Positions 15,491 to 21,423 of a DNA stretch of 41,934 nucleotides are shown piece after piece. The notes under the pieces are model-generated. The model searched no databases. It saw only the letters and a program-made list of their open reading frames with translations, and was not told the origin of the DNA. Numbering within the stretch: position 1 is the first letter of the stretch; the number at the start of each line of letters is the position of its first letter. The translations under genes and the position numbers were made by a program. The stretch lies in the IMG/VR virus record IMGVR_UViG_3300037483_000173; one strand, written 5' to 3'. The stretch comes from a virus.

Positions 15491-15509
15491 CGATTGGAGG
15501 TAAGCGGCG

Positions 15510-15737
15510 ATGCTGGAAAGAAAGGTTGAATGCGAGGACTGCGGTGAAACGTATCCGCCAGGATGGCCGCACACATGCGGATCGTCCGCTTCACCGACTT
15601 GTTCAACGGCGGACCTGAACGAAGGCGTTTGGTTTCAGTCGGCGGTTTCCGGTGGATGGTATCGGAACCACAAGGCGGCGGGAGCCGTGCGAATGGTTAT
15701 GGTCGACGGGCGCTCTTACTTTCGAGATGGCGCATAG
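15510..15737 (+). CDS. Hypothetical protein with an N-terminal CxxC..C motif
   Basis: 75-aa ORF with GGAGG RBS. Confidence 0.5.
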   Translation: MLERKVECEDCGETYPPGWPHTCGSSASPTCSTADLNEGVWFQSAVSGGWYRNHKAAGAVRMVMVDGRSYFRDGA

Positions 15738-15788
15738 CCGTTGAACACTGGACTATACGGACTGTGCAAAGTCGTGGATTGAGGATCA

Positions 15789-16091
15789 ATGACTTATAGG
15801 GTAAACAAAAAGGCAAGGAAGTTGTGGTCCGAACAGGCTAACGCCAAAAAAGAGCGCTTGCGCATGCAGCGTAGCGAGCGTGACCCGCTTGTTGACCTCG
15901 ATCCATATCTCAAAATAACAGTGGAGCGGAAGGCAACAGGAGAGATCGCTGTGTTCGAGTGCTTTGAAGGCGACAGGATCGACAACTACCGCGTCTACTG
16001 CAATGACGCGTTCCAGGGCGTGCAGAGCATAAGCACGATAACCAAGAATCTTCGCAAAGCACTGCCGAGATTCCGTAGGATGGACGAATGA
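15789..16091 (+). CDS. Hypothetical protein
   Basis: 100-aa ORF with GAGGA RBS. ATGA coupling to the polymerase gene. Confidence 0.55.
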   Translation: MTYRVNKKARKLWSEQANAKKERLRMQRSERDPLVDLDPYLKITVERKATGEIAVFECFEGDRIDNYRVYCNDAFQGVQSISTITKNLRKALPRFRRMDE

Positions 16092-17224
16092 CCGTTTTAT
16101 ACCTGGACACAGAGACCTACAACGAAACCGACCTGAAGGCCGCGGGCACGTACCGCTATGCTGAGACGGCGGAGATCATGCTGATCACCTACGCCATCGA
16201 CGATGGGCCTGTGCAGTGTTGGGACTATAGCGAAGGAGAGGCACCGCCGGATTTTGCTGCGTTTGTCGCCAGATACCCGGACCTGCAGGTGGTGGCACAC
16301 AACGCCATGTTCGACCGCAACGTGCTGCGCTTGGGGAGTATCAGCCACCAGCACATCGACATCCCCATTGAACGGTGGCAGTGCACTATGGTCCAGGCCA
16401 TGCAACACGCGCTACCAGGTAGTCTGGATGAACTGGGTCGGGTGCTGGGCTTGCCGGAGGACCAGCGCAAATTGGCCGAGGGCAAGAAGCTGATCCAACG
16501 CTTCTGCAAGCCCGCACCGAAGAACCACAAGGCTCGCCGCTACACCCGTGAGACGCACCCGGAAGAATGGCAGCGGTTCAATGAGTACGCCAAGCAGGAC
16601 GTGTCCACGATGCGCGAGGTTCACAAGCGTCTGCCCACCTGGAACTGGAAGGCCGATGACATCGCCATGTACCACCTGGACCAGCGCATCAACGACCGCG
16701 GCTTCGCGGTGGACCTAGAACTAGCGCGCGCTGGGGCCGCCGCCGCCATTGTGGAGAAAGAGGCACTGGCCGCCCGCTTCCAGGAGCTGACCGGGCTCAA
16801 TCCTACCCAGCGGGCCAAGGTGCAGGCGTTCCTCAACGACAACTATGGCCTCGGCATCGACTCCACGGCCAAGCATATAATGCAGCCCATCGCCGATGAC
16901 GAATCGCTGCCGGCGCAGTTGCGGGAAATCGCCAGCATCATGCTCTCTGCCAACAAGACCAGCACGGCCAAGTACGCGGCCATTGCCGAAGCGGTCAGCA
17001 GCGACGGGCGGTTTCGTGGCGGCTTGCAGTTCGCCGGTGCCAGTCGCACACGGCGCTGGGCGGGACGCAAATTCCAGCCACAAAATCTACCGTCTCGCGG
17101 GCTGCCGAAGGCGCACCAGATTGAGACGTATATCGCCGCGCTAAAGGCCGGGGTGCATGTGGAACTGTTTGACGATTTAATGCTGTACGGTGCCGCGGCG
17201 TTGCGCGGTGTGGTGGTTGCTTAA
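16088..17224 (+). CDS. Family A DNA polymerase, N-terminal fragment (3'-5' exonuclease and N-terminal polymerase region)
   Basis: 378 aa. LYLDTETYN (Exo I-like) and HNAMFDRNVL (Exo II-like). It stops at ..LRGVVVA, just before the expected motif A. Confidence 0.8.
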   Translation: MTVLYLDTETYNETDLKAAGTYRYAETAEIMLITYAIDDGPVQCWDYSEGEAPPDFAAFVARYPDLQVVAHNAMFDRNVLRLGSISHQHIDIPIERWQCTMVQAMQHALPGSLDELGRVLGLPEDQRKLAEGKKLIQRFCKPAPKNHKARRYTRETHPEEWQRFNEYAKQDVSTMREVHKRLPTWNWKADDIAMYHLDQRINDRGFAVDLELARAGAAAAIVEKEALAARFQELTGLNPTQRAKVQAFLNDNYGLGIDSTAKHIMQPIADDESLPAQLREIASIMLSANKTSTAKYAAIAEAVSSDGRFRGGLQFAGASRTRRWAGRKFQPQNLPSRGLPKAHQIETYIAALKAGVHVELFDDLMLYGAAALRGVVVA

Positions 17225-17236
17225 AGGAGGATGGAG

Positions 17237-17758
17237 ATGAGCAAGCGTTTTGGTAGGAATAAGAAACGGAAGATGCGGCAGCAGATCGCGGACTTGAAGT
17301 ACGCGCAAGCCATGGACCGGGGATTGGCCGAACACACGGGGCGAAAACTCAGAGCCCTCGAATCCGAGATGCGCGAATGGGAGGAGCGGGTGCGCGCCCT
17401 ACTTGGGCACGCCTCCGGCTTCACAAGAACCCCAGGGCGCATCGCCTCCGCACAGCCAATGCCGCCAGAGTTTCAGACCCCTTTGATGCGACAACTGCCA
17501 GGTCTTGGGGCCGTTGCTCCCGGAACCCCGCCCCGATCTGGAATGGACATATTCAACACGACAATGTACCGGTTGGAAACAGCCGTACATGAAGGGGCGG
17601 ATCTCGCGGCATATGTCCACCTGTATATCGGCCACAACGATAAGTTGGGGTACTACATGAGCCGGAAGATGTTGGACGCCCTCGGTCTTGGCCCGGAGGG
17701 CATGCGGTATGTCGCGGAAGATATCGCTCGTCGATTCGATGCAGAACTACGCAAATGA
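17237..17758 (+). CDS. Hypothetical protein encoded in the insertion that splits the polymerase gene
   Basis: AAGGAGG RBS at 17224-17230. Candidate starts are ATG 17231 or 17237. The N-terminus is basic (KRFGRNKKRKMRQQ). The stop overlaps the ATG of the C-terminal polymerase fragment (ATGA). I see no HEG motif. Confidence 0.6.
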   Translation: MSKRFGRNKKRKMRQQIADLKYAQAMDRGLAEHTGRKLRALESEMREWEERVRALLGHASGFTRTPGRIASAQPMPPEFQTPLMRQLPGLGAVAPGTPPRSGMDIFNTTMYRLETAVHEGADLAAYVHLYIGHNDKLGYYMSRKMLDALGLGPEGMRYVAEDIARRFDAELRK

Positions 17759-19578
17759 AACTCGTCGTCTCAGACCTCTCCAACATCGAAGGCCGGGTAC
17801 TCGCGTACCTGGCCGGCGAAGAGTGGAAGCTGGAAGCGTTCCGCGCCTATGACCGTGGTGAAGGGCCGGACCTGTACAACATCACGGCCACCAGCATCAT
17901 CGGCGGTGACCCGTGGGCGGTGGAGAAGGCCAACCGCAATGCCTTTGGTAAAGTGCCCGATCTAGCGTGCCTCGGCCCTGAAACCCAAGTGTTGACGGAT
18001 TCTGGATATAAGGCTATCGTGGCGGTGTCTGAGACCGATAAACTATGGGATGGTGACGAATGGGTGGGCCACGCAGGATTAATAGATCGCGGTGTCCGGA
18101 AGGTTGTACGTGTGGACGGCATCGTGGTAACACCGGATCATTTCATCTTAACCGGGAAAATATGGAAGCAGGCGAGGCTACTCGCTTCAAACGCAAACGA
18201 CCTCCGCCGAGCATTGGGACGCGGTTCGGAGAACTTACCGTCGTCGGCTACCAATACGGTCCCGCGGGGGGCCTACGCGGCATCATCGTTGGCTGTGATT
18301 GCGGAGCGGAACCACATGCTGTCGCACAAAGCAATTTGCTATCTGGGCGAACCACGCGGTGTAACAAATGCGCGAAAGCCGCATCAAATCGTTGGCGTAA
18401 GAATTACTACGGCTACGCGGATATTGTCCCAGATGAGGCACATCGTAGACGGCTGCTCAATCGGGTTGCGGCGTGTATTAACCGCTGTCGGAATCCACGG
18501 GACGCATCCTACGCCAACTACGGCGGACGAGGGATACACGTATTTACGGAGTGGGAGACCGACCGGCGGGCATTCCTCAGATACCTCGTTACTCTGGATG
18601 GGTGGGACCAACCGGAACTTGAACTCGACCGGATCGATGTTAATCGTGGGTATGAGCCGGGAAATCTCCGGTTCATTACCAGACGCGAAAATCGCCGGAA
18701 CCAACGAACCGTCCGCGATCTCCAGCAACACATCGCCGATCTTGAGCAGCGTCTACGACATTGCACATGCGGGGCCGCGGAGTCGATTCACAATCCGGAC
18801 GAATAACGGACACCTCATCGTTCACAACTGCGGGTACGGAGGTGGTGTCGGCGCCTTCCGCACATTCGCCAAAGCCTACCGCATCACCATGGAGGAGCAC
18901 TGGCCCACCATCCGACAGAACATCGCCGCACCGCTCATCGAGCAGGCCCGGCAGAACCTCGAGAAGTGGGGCCGTCCGCAGCTGGCGGATCTGGAAATCA
19001 GTGAACTGGAATGGGTGGCGAGCGAATCAGTGAAGCTGGCCTGGCGGGCAAGGCACCCGGCCACCCGCAAGCTGTGGTACGACTGCGAGAACGCTGCCCG
19101 CAACGCACTGCGCACCCCGAACACGACGTTCAACGCAGGGCGGCATCTGAAGTTCCGATTCGTTGAGCACGTCAGTGGCAATTGGCTGCTGGTGCGCCTG
19201 CCCAGCGGCAAGTTCCTGACGTACTTCGATCCACGTCTGACCTCCGACGATAGCATCTCCTATCTCGGATACGGGCAAGAGGGCGAGGCCACTGCGCGGG
19301 TATGGTCTCGACAGTACACATACGGCGGAAAAATCGTTGAAAATTCGGCCCAGGCGTTGGCCGGGGACGTACTGAAAGCCAACATGCCGCGCATTGAGGA
19401 AGCCGGGTATGAAATCGTACTCACCGTCCACGATGAAGCCGTCACCCAGGCCCCCGACACCGACGAGTACAACGCGGAGAAGTTGAGCGCGTTGCTGGCG
19501 GTAGCGCCGGAATGGGCGCCCGGCCTGCCGCTGGCGGCGGCTGGGTTTGAAAGTTACCGATATAAAAAGGAGGATTAA
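17755..19578 (+). CDS. Family A DNA polymerase, C-terminal fragment (motifs A-C) interrupted by a 287-aa intein
   Basis: It starts at ..VVSDLSNIEGRVLA (motif A-like). Later motifs include the ..GYGGGVGAF.. segment and ..VLTVHDEAV (motif C-like). The exteins are 17755-17967 and 18829-19578. Confidence 0.85.
   Translation: MKLVVSDLSNIEGRVLAYLAGEEWKLEAFRAYDRGEGPDLYNITATSIIGGDPWAVEKANRNAFGKVPDLACLGPETQVLTDSGYKAIVAVSETDKLWDGDEWVGHAGLIDRGVRKVVRVDGIVVTPDHFILTGKIWKQARLLASNANDLRRALGRGSENLPSSATNTVPRGAYAASSLAVIAERNHMLSHKAICYLGEPRGVTNARKPHQIVGVRITTATRILSQMRHIVDGCSIGLRRVLTAVGIHGTHPTPTTADEGYTYLRSGRPTGGHSSDTSLLWMGGTNRNLNSTGSMLIVGMSREISGSLPDAKIAGTNEPSAISSNTSPILSSVYDIAHAGPRSRFTIRTNNGHLIVHNCGYGGGVGAFRTFAKAYRITMEEHWPTIRQNIAAPLIEQARQNLEKWGRPQLADLEISELEWVASESVKLAWRARHPATRKLWYDCENAARNALRTPNTTFNAGRHLKFRFVEHVSGNWLLVRLPSGKFLTYFDPRLTSDDSISYLGYGQEGEATARVWSRQYTYGGKIVENSAQALAGDVLKANMPRIEEAGYEIVLTVHDEAVTQAPDTDEYNAEKLSALLAVAPEWAPGLPLAAAGFESYRYKKED
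17968..18828 (+). mobile_element. Intein inserted in the conserved GKV..LA|LGYGGG segment
   Basis: Cys1 with block A CLGPETQVLTDSG, block B TPDHFILT, block F VYDIAHAG..F and block G GHLIVHN, followed by a +1 Cys (CGYGGG). Confidence 0.8.
18162..18806 (+). CDS. HNH-type homing-endonuclease homologue nested in the intein but in a different reading frame
   Basis: This frame encodes FGELTVVGY..CDCG..V....L.SGRT.RC.KC...YANYGGRGI.V..EW........LDRIDVNRGYEPGNLRFITRRENRRNQ. That pattern is typical of free-standing phage HNH endonucleases. It is offset from the polymerase/intein frame. Confidence 0.65.
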   Translation: MEAGEATRFKRKRPPPSIGTRFGELTVVGYQYGPAGGLRGIIVGCDCGAEPHAVAQSNLLSGRTTRCNKCAKAASNRWRKNYYGYADIVPDEAHRRRLLNRVAACINRCRNPRDASYANYGGRGIHVFTEWETDRRAFLRYLVTLDGWDQPELELDRIDVNRGYEPGNLRFITRRENRRNQRTVRDLQQHIADLEQRLRHCTCGAAESIHNPDE

Positions 19579-19580
19579 CC

Positions 19581-19880
19581 GTGCTCGAATCGAAAGTAGA
19601 AAAATACCTGGTCAAACGCATCGAAGCCATCGGCGGTACGGCGGAGAAATTCACCTCCCCGAATCGGCGCAGCGTGCCGGACAGGTTGGTGCTGATTGAT
19701 GTTGGGGAGAATACGCCTATCGGGCCATTCGGGGTAGCTATCTTCGTAGAGCTGAAAGCCCCCGGCAAGAAGCCAACGCCCGCCCAGCAACGGGATCACG
19801 AACGGCGCAGGGCCATGGGCTTCCGGGTAGAGGTGCTGGACTCTATCGAGGCGGTGGACGAATTCGTGGAGGGGCTGTGA
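19581..19880 (+). CDS. VRR-NUC domain nuclease
   Basis: 99 aa with GTG start. It has the ..GVPDRLVL.. and ..FVELKAPGKKPTPAQ.. pattern. Confidence 0.7.
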   Translation: MLESKVEKYLVKRIEAIGGTAEKFTSPNRRSVPDRLVLIDVGENTPIGPFGVAIFVELKAPGKKPTPAQQRDHERRRAMGFRVEVLDSIEAVDEFVEGL

Positions 19881-20068
19881 TGCACGTCACCGAACTGCTG
19901 GACATACTGAAGCTGCAGGGCATACCGCACAAAGAGGCGGTGCGCCAGGCCAGGGCCATGCTCAAGGAGCAGGAGCGCATTCAGCTCGCGAATGCGGTGA
20001 AGATGCGGGCCGGGCGTAAAGCCGTCAAGCCGAAGCCATCGTATGGTGGGTGGGGGAATGGGCGTTGA
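19877..20068 (+). CDS. Hypothetical protein
   Basis: 63-aa ORF overlapping its neighbours at both ends. Confidence 0.45.
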   Translation: MMHVTELLDILKLQGIPHKEAVRQARAMLKEQERIQLANAVKMRAGRKAVKPKPSYGGWGNGR

Positions 20069-21423
20069 TATTCACCCCCCGCCCCTACCAGCGCACCGCC
20101 CTTGCCCACGCGCTCAACACACCACGCAATGCGCTGTGGCTGGGCATGGGCCTCGGCAAGACCTCCATCACGCTGGAAGCCATCTCCGTGCTGCACACGC
20201 TGGGCGCGGTGAAGAACGTGCTGGTCATCGCCCCGTTGCGCGTGGCCCGCAGCACATGGCCGAATGAGGTGGCCAAGTGGGAGAACTTCGCGCACCTCGG
20301 CGCAGTGCCCATCGTCGGCACGCCGGACCAGCGCAAGAAGGCGGTGGAGAAGAAGGCGGTGATCCACACCATCAACTACGAGAACCTGCCGTGGCTGGTG
20401 GAGCGATGGGGCGACCGGTGGCCCTATGCTATGGTGGTGCCCGACGAGGCCACCAAGCTCAAGTCCTTCCGTCTCGGAGGGGGCAAGGGCCAACGGGCAC
20501 GGGCGCTGGGCAAGGTTGCCCACACGAAGGTCCACCACTGGGGCAATCTCACTGGCACGCCGGCGCCGAACGGACTGGCGGATCTGTGGGGGCCGACGTG
20601 GTTCCTGGACAAGGGCGCACGCCTCGGCCGCACGCACACGGCCTTCACCGAACGCTGGTTCCGGCCCAGTTACAACGGCTTCGGCCTGGAGCCGATGGAC
20701 CACGCGCACGATGAGATCCACCAGCGGCTGTCCGACCTCTGCCTGTCAATGGAAGCGAAGGACCACTTCGACCTGCCGGAGCTGGTGCTCAACACCATCG
20801 AGGTGGACCTGCCCCCGTCGGCTCGCAAGCTATACACGGACATGGAGAAGCAGATGTTCATGGAGCTGGCTGGGGAGCCCGTGGAGGCGTTCAACGCCGC
20901 AGCCCGCACCATGAAACTATTACAGCTCGCTAATGGCGCGGCGTATATCTCGGAGGGCCGCTGGGCGCACGTCCACGACGCCAAACTGGACGCCCTGGAA
21001 GACATCATCGAGGAAGCCGCGGGCGCTCCGATACTGGTGGCCTACCATTTCAAGTCCGACCTGGAGCGGCTGCGCCATCGCTTCCCCAAGCTGCGGCATC
21101 TGGACGCCAATCCGCAAACAGAAGCCGACTGGAACGCCGGGCGCATTCCGCTGTTGGCGCTCCATCCCGCCAGCGCCGGCCACGGCCTAAACCTCCAACA
21201 CGGCGGCAACATCATGGTGTTCTTCGGGCTGAACTGGAATCTGGAGGAGCGGCTGCAGGTGATCGAGCGCATCGGCCCCACCCGCCAGGCGCAGAGTGGC
21301 TACGACCGGCCGGTGTTCGTCCACAACCTCGTGGCCAAGAACACAGTAGACGAACTGGTGCTCGCCCGTATTGAGACCAAACGTTCGGTGCAGGACTTAC
21401 TGATGGAGGCGATGAAGCGATGA
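20050..21423 (+). CDS. SNF2/DEAD-like superfamily 2 helicase
   Basis: 457 aa with RPYQ, GLGKT, the DEAT box and C-terminal helicase motifs (..GLNLQ.. and others). Confidence 0.8.
   Translation: MGEWALIFTPRPYQRTALAHALNTPRNALWLGMGLGKTSITLEAISVLHTLGAVKNVLVIAPLRVARSTWPNEVAKWENFAHLGAVPIVGTPDQRKKAVEKKAVIHTINYENLPWLVERWGDRWPYAMVVPDEATKLKSFRLGGGKGQRARALGKVAHTKVHHWGNLTGTPAPNGLADLWGPTWFLDKGARLGRTHTAFTERWFRPSYNGFGLEPMDHAHDEIHQRLSDLCLSMEAKDHFDLPELVLNTIEVDLPPSARKLYTDMEKQMFMELAGEPVEAFNAAARTMKLLQLANGAAYISEGRWAHVHDAKLDALEDIIEEAAGAPILVAYHFKSDLERLRHRFPKLRHLDANPQTEADWNAGRIPLLALHPASAGHGLNLQHGGNIMVFFGLNWNLEERLQVIERIGPTRQAQSGYDRPVFVHNLVAKNTVDELVLARIETKRSVQDLLMEAMKR

Follow-up and report, generated by a model that had tools for sequence, protein, structure and literature searches.

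Inteins are thought to gain homing endonucleases when free-standing endonuclease genes invade mini-inteins, and an endonuclease gene nested out of frame within an intein is a predicted intermediate of this process. Dalgaard reportedly described in 1997 canonical inteins whose HNH endonuclease lies in frame, and Gorbalenya is said to have described in 1998 non-canonical inteins with an antisense LAGLIDADG open reading frame (ORF). In fractured genes, a free-standing endonuclease gene sits between split inteins (Dassa et al. 2009, PMC2677866). Nesting of this kind was first reported in 2025, in a preprint on actinophage inteins (Gosselin, Arsenault & Gogarten, bioRxiv 10.1101/2025.01.02.630785); their endonuclease VII-like gene lies "in reading frame 3 relative to the intein," and antisense LAGLIDADG and VSR-like genes are described there as well. 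The ShiLan domain, an HNH sequence lying out of frame in a mycobacteriophage DNA methylase, was presented with its route of translation posed as a question (Arsenault et al. 2025, PMC11855218). Here we analyze IMG/VR virus record IMGVR_UViG_3300037483_000173 (the window, 41,934 nucleotides [nt] in full), in which a class-1 intein within motif B of a family A DNA polymerase (PolA) shares its DNA with an HNH-like ORF in another frame. The arrangement is of the kind described in the 2025 preprint and differs from it in host gene, nuclease family, and phage group.

The reading that we favor, and hold with good confidence, is that the locus is a composite mobile element, namely, a class-1 intein with a probable homing endonuclease gene nested in its endonuclease loop in the −1 frame. 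The evidence for the two coding frames is given first, followed by that for the nature and mobility of the nested gene and for how it might be expressed.

An intein and an HNH-like ORF in the same DNA

The window is a ∼42-kb podovirus-like phage genome with terminase, head-tail adaptor, tail proteins, primase-helicase, methyltransferase, and a split PolA; unless stated otherwise, the features placed below within 17755-19578 are on its plus strand. According to the ORF list, the C-terminal piece of the polymerase (17755..19578) encodes a precursor of 607 amino acids (aa) that runs from motif A to motif C with the intein inside. Its product matches Pfam DNA_pol_A below the cut-off and PHROG DNA polymerase families at 7.6e-53, and in an AlphaFold2 (AF2) model of the precursor, built with a 48-sequence alignment, the polymerase part resembles Taq and T7 PolA (Foldseek probability, 0.95).

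The intein comprises 287 codons of the polymerase frame (17968..18828) and lies within PolA motif B, between KVPDLA and CGYGGG. Its N terminus reads CLGPETQVLT, and the splicing blocks that a reading of the DNA letters alone (the sequence-only reading) had placed in this frame are all found there: Cys1 at 17968, TPDH at 18130-18141, the terminal HN at 18823-18828, and the +1 Cys at 18829-18831, so that the junction ...LIVHN/C falls at 18828/18829. These class-1 splicing residues are unchanging among relatives. The two Hint lobes were delimited by the AF2 model together with invariant residues. The N-terminal lobe (Hint-N; blocks A and B, with the TPDH motif; 17968..18252) corresponds to residues 72-166 of the 607-aa model, which form beta strands and helices with a predicted local distance difference test score (pLDDT) of ∼70-90, and an alignment of mini-Hint sequences leaves C1, T6, T10, W27, G29, W32, T55, D57, H58, and W66 invariant. 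The C-terminal lobe (Hint-C; blocks F and G, VYDIAHAGPRSRFTIRTNNGHLIVHN; 18739..18828) is modeled as beta strands (residues 329-358; pLDDT, 69-78), and its invariant residues in the same alignment are D104, F114, H126, and N127.

Foldseek matches the modeled Hint lobes to the gp41-1 intein and the Ssp DnaB mini-intein with a probability of 1.00 and weak E-values (6e-3 to 2.5e-2). A profile of the "mini" Hint versions gives 9.1e-5 for the Spl DnaX mini-intein and 2e-4 for the Neq split intein, and the Pfam Hint models reach only 0.006-0.11 on the intein. Because the polymerase is essential and the splicing motifs are conserved, the intein is predicted to be active in protein splicing.

The open stretch of the polymerase frame (positions = 1 mod 3) extends over 17644-19578, with no stop in the intein; three-frame translation of 17968-18828 thus agrees with its first description as stop free. 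The HNH frame (positions = 0 mod 3), which is −1 with respect to the polymerase frame, stays open over 18057-18806 and includes a predicted HNH-like (His-Me finger type) endonuclease ORF of 248 aa at 18060..18806. The third frame contains many stops over 17968-18828, 10 of them within the HNH ORF.

Between the Hint lobes, the polymerase frame reads through the HNH gene in the wrong frame, giving a stop-free linker of 162 codons (18253..18738) that is predicted to be disordered. In the AF2 model, the linker (residues 167-328) has a pLDDT of ∼25 and is without secondary structure. The sequence-only reading had described ∼190 central codons as featureless; the description stands, and the length comes down to ∼162 codons (18253-18738) by the model. 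A Hint or endonuclease-domain match for the center of this frame, which by the sequence-only reading would have told against its account, was looked for: Pfam gives no match to it, the model is unstructured, and amino-acid identity among relatives (28%) does not exceed the level of the non-coding third frame (25%). The linker is shortened through in-frame deletions in relatives L093 and L094. We also considered that the linker might be selected to be hydrophilic and rejected this, as its composition gave no sign of selection (hydrophobic residues, 0.274 versus 0.252 expected; S/T/A/P/G, 0.48 versus 0.53 expected); the sole detectable constraint on the polymerase frame is to have no stops.

The polymerase-frame product of the intein does match one PHROG family, phrog_93, named "endonuclease," over positions 2-281. 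A separate and unrelated ORF of 99 aa just 3' of the polymerase (19581-19880) matches positions 352-440 of phrog_93 as well (7e-28), and for this reason we see phrog_93 as a composite that probably holds polymerase-frame translations of the same element; its match over the intein is probably a by-product.

Recurrence of the arrangement in other phages

Searches by tblastn with the 287-aa polymerase-frame sequence found 172 GenBank phage records at 100% coverage and 32-40% identity, and the HNH-frame protein was found at the same place in the GenBank polymerase genes at 47-54% identity. The records include ∼145 Jersey-like Salmonella phages, E. coli phages, and Sodalis phage SO-1; megablast found no near-identical DNA among GenBank phages. 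A profile-guided scan of IMG/VR added 415 relatives of the HNH protein.

We compared the layout in five GenBank phages (EBPR siphovirus 2, Salmonella vB_SenS-Ent1, Sodalis SO-1, Vibrio 97.13, and Pseudomonas MR14) and the best 80 of the 415 IMG/VR relatives, 85 sequences in all (74 of them distinct) from independent assemblies. The polymerase frame is open and the HNH ORF intact in all 85, with the same +2 (−1) offset. Across loci, Hint-N lies 194 or 191 nt upstream of the HNH ORF in the +1 frame (mod 3 = 2), and in the five GenBank loci and three IMG/VR loci, exteins and intein are in frame 2 and the HNH sequence is in frame 1, with no stop in the polymerase frame. The third frame holds 3-28 stops per relative, versus 0 in the polymerase frame. 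The layout is an old and stable one, is widespread, and has been kept over deep divergence (∼50% amino-acid identity).

Selection on the two frames

The +1 frame of 16 genes of the window has 0.032 stops per codon and a longest open run of 183 codons, which puts 215 open codons at a P value of ∼1e-3. The rough estimate made from the letters alone (∼0.03 stops per codon and less than a 1 percent chance) was therefore close. When the HNH ORF of the window was resampled synonymously, 3.6-5.7 stops were expected in the polymerase frame and none is seen (P(0), 0.0007-0.0027); for nine diverged members, 2-7 stops were expected each and 9/9 have none, with P(0) of 0.0007-0.03 each. Since the compared sequences are related phylogenetically, these P values and those for the expression signals below are overstated, which has to be counted against our reading. 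Polymerase-frame stops are depleted in every sequence resampled, as the initial proposal of dual coding under selection had it. Each of the two frames is open and shows a selective depletion of stops.

The two frames differ at the level of protein. In a codon alignment of nine deeply diverged members with 172 ungapped core codons, the HNH frame shows 52% amino-acid identity, compared to 28% for the polymerase frame and 25% for the third frame, and nucleotide identity at HNH codon positions 1, 2, and 3 is.60,.66, and.38. The codon-position pattern and the 52% identity therefore indicate purifying selection on the HNH amino acids, beyond the keeping of an open frame. Over the central ∼160 codons, protein-level purifying selection acts on the HNH frame only.

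A separate feature of this region is its codon composition. In the HNH core (18252-18740 and its relatives), G at third positions is at 0.225, versus 0.338 in the exteins, and A and T are enriched. This depletion may reflect the foreign codon usage of a mobile element or the avoidance of xTG-A stops.

The HNH-frame protein

The HNH-frame product matches phrog_374, an "HNH endonuclease" family, with an E-value of 2.9e-36, which bears out the HNH homologue first noticed in the offset frame. Other PHROG families of the name "HNH endonuclease" match at 1.9e-21 and 2.4e-21, and there is a weak match to a PHROG family named endonuclease VII. The AF2 model of the 248-aa protein has a mean pLDDT of 82.9 and is confident from residue 45 to ∼235, with the first 40 residues disordered; its layout is a beta-rich zinc ribbon, helices, a beta-beta-alpha unit at 188-213, and a C-terminal coiled coil. 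The zinc-ribbon-like motif CxC...CxxC (C79, C81, C101, and C104; 18294..18371) falls in columns that are invariant in 45 sequences, and beta strands are predicted at residues 59-88.

The predicted beta-beta-alpha nuclease core, ELDRIDVNRGYEPGNLRFITRRENRRN (18621..18701), was recognized from invariant columns and the AF2 model, with strands at 188-191 and 203-206 and a helix at 208-213. D190, R191, N202, N211, and N214 are invariant in this core among 45 nested homologues, and N202, N211, and N214 retain the Asn residues of the HNH motif (structural and metal binding). We take ELDRIDVNRGYEPGNLRFITRRENRRN to resemble an I-HmuI-type HNH core.

Several points weigh against a nuclease assignment. 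The general-base His is replaced by Arg (D190-R191; 18627-18632 in the window) in 45 nested and 4 free-standing homologues. Neither Pfam nor NCBIfam gives a match to the HNH protein, a profile search by sequence found no significant match in the PDB, and Foldseek returned nothing significant (best Gme HNH, E = 0.84; the top structures, 4h9d and 3ldy, are HNH enzymes, at 0.84-1.9). The assignment is based on the names of PHROG families and on likeness of motif and secondary structure. Literature searches on the motif YGGRGI gave irrelevant matches only, and no biochemically characterized member of the "DRID" family was found. It is thus uncertain, on sequence grounds, that the HNH-frame product is a nuclease.

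The same D-R pair occurs in free-standing "HNH endonuclease" homologues of Staphylococcus Kayvirus G1, an Enterococcus phage, and a Vibrio phage (among L089-L092), and also in gene 51 of Vibrio phage ICP2, which lies within an annotated intron of the DNA polymerase. Its presence in both free-standing and intron-borne members makes D-R a trait of the family and not a sign of decay, and the genomic contexts of this family are those of homing endonucleases.

Mobility of the element

Contig L087, from a different metagenome assembly, aligns with 17753-19689 of the window without gaps at 96.8% identity over 1937 nt. Differences are distributed very unevenly between the two: the exteins carry 61 substitutions in 963 nt (6.3%) and the intein 1 in 861 (binomial P = 2e-23; Fisher P = 3e-16). 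The near-identical tract (17947..18913, with no strand assigned) consists of the intein with 21 nt upstream and 85 nt downstream, and it may represent a homing and co-conversion tract. Its one substitution, T>C at 18344, leaves the HNH-frame residue unchanged and replaces Leu by Pro in the polymerase frame. We read this contrast as the signature of recent lateral movement centered on the element; on the other side of the balance, ordinary mosaic recombination of phages could in principle also leave an identical tract.

Similarly related polymerases include full, empty, and internally deleted alleles. Full intein alleles are 282-294 aa long. More than 10 intein-free relatives were found, at 59-66% extein identity; in one of them, L095, the motif is contiguous and reads KVPDLA/CGYEGG (KVPDLACGYEGG). 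In-frame deletion derivatives of 141, 148, 165, 171, 187, and 220 aa keep both Hint lobes and have lost the zinc ribbon, the nuclease core, or both. In comparisons across 68 loci, the HNH protein shows greater similarity than the exteins around it in 98% of pairs (means, 54% versus 32%). The allele types and this similarity pattern are the pattern that would fit a homing cycle. Co-evolution of Hint, HNH, and exteins was also examined: Spearman correlations of pairwise identities were weak and uninformative, in part because the non-overlapping Hint segment is short.

Other Hint sequences were seen in related genomes. In the IMG/VR contig L004, the same polymerase gene contains, further upstream, a second Hint-N-like match (1199-1393; 34% identity over 65 aa; E = 4e-6), which suggests a second intein at another site. 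Relatives P0202, P0209, P0234, and P0228 have Hint matches yet no insertion at the motif B site.

Of the alternatives, the one that survives best holds that the HNH-like ORF is a relic or a non-nuclease, for instance, a DNA-binding protein, that the intein is inherited vertically, and that dual-coded DNA is slow to gain stops. The Arg in place of the general-base His, the lack of Pfam and PDB nuclease matches, and the decayed alleles would all be at home in such an account. It is harder to reconcile with the purifying selection on amino acids seen in the.60/.66/.38 pattern and 52% identity, with a D-R pair common to the whole family, free-standing and intron-borne members included, and with the recent lateral movement around the element indicated by 1/861 versus 6.3%. 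We regard it as unlikely and prefer the composite mobile element with a probable homing endonuclease.

Proposed start codon and expression signals of the nested gene

The HNH ORF had been given a start at ATG 18162. Our comparison places it elsewhere: ATG 18060, 34 codons upstream, is the most likely start by sequence, with 18162 as an alternative internal one. In 74/74 sequences, the HNH frame carries no stop in the 34 or more codons that precede 18162, and the minimum is exactly 34. This minimum open point is an NTG that overlaps the codon of the invariant Hint Trp32, which in the window is ATG 18060. From Trp32 to Trp66, there are no HNH-frame stops in the 74 sequences versus 74.5 expected from resampling of Hint codons; as a control, intein codons 1-30 (17968-18057) have 150 HNH-frame stops versus 88 expected, that is, stops are over-represented there. 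The Trp32 site reads ATG in 48, GTG in 15, and TTG in 7 of the 74. The 18162-type start, which overlaps Hint Trp66, reads TTG in 29, GTG in 21, ATG in 16, and CTG in 8, with CTG being the codon of the Salmonella phages, and has weak Shine-Dalgarno (SD) pairing; it was rejected as the main start. A stop stands directly before the proposed start in 22/74 sequences, and in the window, this stop is the TGA of GGTGA in the SD-like motif.

The SD-like site itself, GGGATGGTGA (18047..18056), is formed by the Hint W-D-G codons and ends 3 nt upstream of ATG 18060, and GGGAYGG(TGA) precedes the Trp32 site across relatives. The energy of the duplex with the anti-SD sequence averages −6.96 kcal/mol at the Trp32 site and is −6 or lower in 99% of the 74 sequences, compared to means of −3.5 for the 18162-type site and −2.7 for the background, 11% of which reaches −6 or lower.

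Further upstream, a sigma-70-like promoter (−35 TTGACG, 17-nt spacer, −10 TATCGT; 17992..18020) is predicted within the Hint-N codons, ∼40 nt from the HNH start, and it is the sole promoter-like match in the 4.6 kb from 15500 to 20100. Among relatives, synonymous sites lean to the promoter consensus. The codon for Leu9 is TTG in 41/50 relatives versus 12% among extein Leu codons (P = 2e-29), and that for Ile17 is the rare ATA in 25/56. The promoter criteria are satisfied in 34/62 relatives versus 3.0 expected by synonymous resampling (Wilcoxon 6e-10).

Two observations speak against this assignment of signals. The Trp32 site is without a canonical start in 4/74 sequences, which have another start at about −39 or −32, and the SD-like and −35 sites overlap the conserved Hint residues W-D-G and V-L-T, so that their conservation is partly forced by the protein. 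From the pattern as a whole, we infer a nuclease gene that would have its own promoter, ribosome-binding site, and start codon inside the Hint-N codons. A fuller version of this idea is possible, but we hold it only tentatively and at somewhat less than even confidence: Hint-N would serve as a full expression cassette, with the promoter in V-L-T and I-V, the SD site in W-D-G, and the start in E-W, making ∼100 nt of triple-use DNA, and the nuclease, one of a His-less His-Me-finger-like family, would be both transcribed and translated independently.

Programmed −1 ribosomal frameshifting would be another way into the HNH frame and would yield a fusion of N-extein, Hint-N, and HNH protein. The frame is indeed −1, and it is kept free of stops over the 34 or more codons before the conserved HNH core. 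Against this, there is no conserved X XXY YYZ heptamer (any such heptamer occurs in 17/74, at scattered positions), and a start codon with a strong SD-like site stands exactly where the open frame begins. We consider frameshifting quite improbable and separate initiation at ATG 18060 the better explanation for the composite element.

Assembly error, chance, and intron readings

Three further explanations carry almost no weight with us. An assembly artefact, in which two compensating indels displaced an in-frame HNH intein, has on its side the generic risk of a single metagenomic assembly and nothing specific; it is highly implausible given that the same 194/191-nt offset is found in isolate phage genomes and 80 IMG/VR contigs, that the alignment with L087 is gapless over its 1937 nt, and that 0/120 related polymerase proteins have the HNH sequence in the polymerase frame. 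The sequence-only reading had named such indels as a possibility, and comparison with relatives indicates none: the same layout in 85 sequences is not what an indel artefact would give.

An opening of the polymerase frame by chance draws some credit from DNA of ∼58-62% G+C with many long spurious ORFs, including the +1-frame run of 183 codons, but at P(0) of 0.0007-0.03 per sequence, zero stops in 9/9 and in 85/85, against 3-28 in the third frame, make it no less implausible.

The last reading takes the insert for a group I intron with an HNH ORF, or for a split intein or fractured gene around a free-standing endonuclease gene. The SO-1 record does say "type I self-splicing intron," nuclease homologues occur in the annotated ICP2 polymerase intron, and fractured genes are known (Dassa 2009, PMC2677866). 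Yet no Rfam intron match reaches the gathering threshold in the window, L087, or L088, the Hint motifs lie exactly at the boundaries, the polymerase frame is continuous from 17644 to 19578 and likewise in relatives, and there is neither a stop after Hint-N nor a start before Hint-C, as a split intein would have; we hold this reading to be extremely unlikely. In the SO-1 record (L003, NC_013600; 1094-4282 and 2578-3336), an overlapping HNH coding sequence is annotated and the insert is called a group I intron. In view of the Hint boundaries and the open polymerase frame, that intron annotation is probably wrong.

Proposed mechanism and origin

Under the favored reading of a composite mobile element, ribosomes on the polymerase frame would read through the whole insert and make the Hint lobes (95 and 30 residues) joined by the 162-residue disordered, stop-free linker. 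The Hint domain would then excise itself and rejoin PolA motif B as KVPDLA-CGYGGG. The −1 frame would be read separately from ATG 18060 to give the 248-aa protein, using the SD-like site and probably a sigma-70-type promoter of its own, both within the Hint-N codons. In a mixed infection, the nuclease would cut or nick an intein-less polymerase allele at the insertion site, and recombinational repair would copy the intein, the nuclease gene, and short flanks into the empty allele.

The sequence-only reading had proposed that a free-standing homing endonuclease gene invaded a mini-intein. Such an origin is plausible because free-standing and intron-borne homologues exist; the event would not be a recent accident, the arrangement being old and widespread.

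Neighboring features

The polymerase of the window is split just before motif A, with ORFs at 16088-17224, 17231-17758, and 17755-19578. The N part ends ...LRGVVVA* and the C part begins MKLVVSDLSNIEGR; unsplit relatives read RG.I.APPGKKLVVADLSNIEGR. The ORF between the halves encodes 175 aa, its sole match is a weak one to phrog_20923 over the first 33 aa, and its stop overlaps the start of the polymerase C part (ATGA). The same gap holds an unrelated 257-nt filler without an ORF in L087 and two small ORFs in L088. No Rfam intron match was found in the split region.

In vB_SenS-Ent1 (L002, 4852-5897), the helicase gene next to the polymerase in Jersey-like phages has an intein of its own, a canonical one whose LAGLIDADG endonuclease is in frame. 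With the dual-frame intein in the polymerase gene, both architectures therefore coexist in one genome.

Comparison with known systems

Already present in GenBank are gp37 of vB_SenS-Ent1 and gp38/gp39 of SO-1, which represent the same element at the same site with identities of 32% in the polymerase frame and 47-48% in the HNH frame. The Ent1 record annotates an "intein encoding splicing domains" only, and we found no paper on the dual-frame arrangement for the polymerase intein family of the vB_SenS-Ent1/SO-1 type. Annotation pipelines routinely miss the nested HNH gene or call the insert an intron. The family shows that such a supposed intermediate can persist as a stable and highly successful state, and the element is still moving. 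Since it occurs in easily cultured Salmonella and E. coli phages (Jerseyvirus and Dhillonvirus), several questions become directly testable: how the hidden endonuclease is expressed, whether a Hint domain tolerates a disordered linker of 160 residues, and whether intein and endonuclease home jointly.

Canonical in-frame inteins (LAGLIDADG and HNH) share with the element of the window a conserved catalytic motif, the same topological loop, and the occurrence of empty, full, and decayed alleles. They differ in that the endonuclease of the window is separate from the intein polypeptide and would need its own initiation, with a long disordered linker in its stead. Inteins with antisense ORFs and fractured genes are alike in having an endonuclease gene nested in or between intein halves and translated separately, whereas the gene in the window is on the same strand and its intein is contiguous. 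The ShiLan domain is similar in that its HNH sequence lies out of frame in a stop-free host gene, and a loop is predicted for the in-frame product. A splicing domain is absent from ShiLan, so its insert remains part of the host protein; in contrast, the HNH sequence of the window is flanked by Hint lobes that would be able to remove the insert.

The actinophage inteins are likewise of the class-1 type with an endonuclease ORF on the same strand in frame 3 and an in-frame translation without recognizable structure, and for them as well, invasion by a free-standing endonuclease gene has been proposed and continuing transfer is indicated. The preprint identified no expression signals for them, whereas candidate signals are proposed here. 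Their host genes are terminase, minor capsid, ThyX, and Pol III alpha, whereas the element of the window lies in PolA motif B, and their hosts are Actinobacteria, compared to mainly phages of Proteobacteria for the family of the window. The nuclease of the actinophage inteins is endonuclease VII-like, and that predicted here is a 248-aa Zn-ribbon protein with a YGGRGI...DRID...N...N core. Lastly, the architecture was called rare in actinophages, while the family of the window counts 172 GenBank phage records and 415 IMG/VR relatives.

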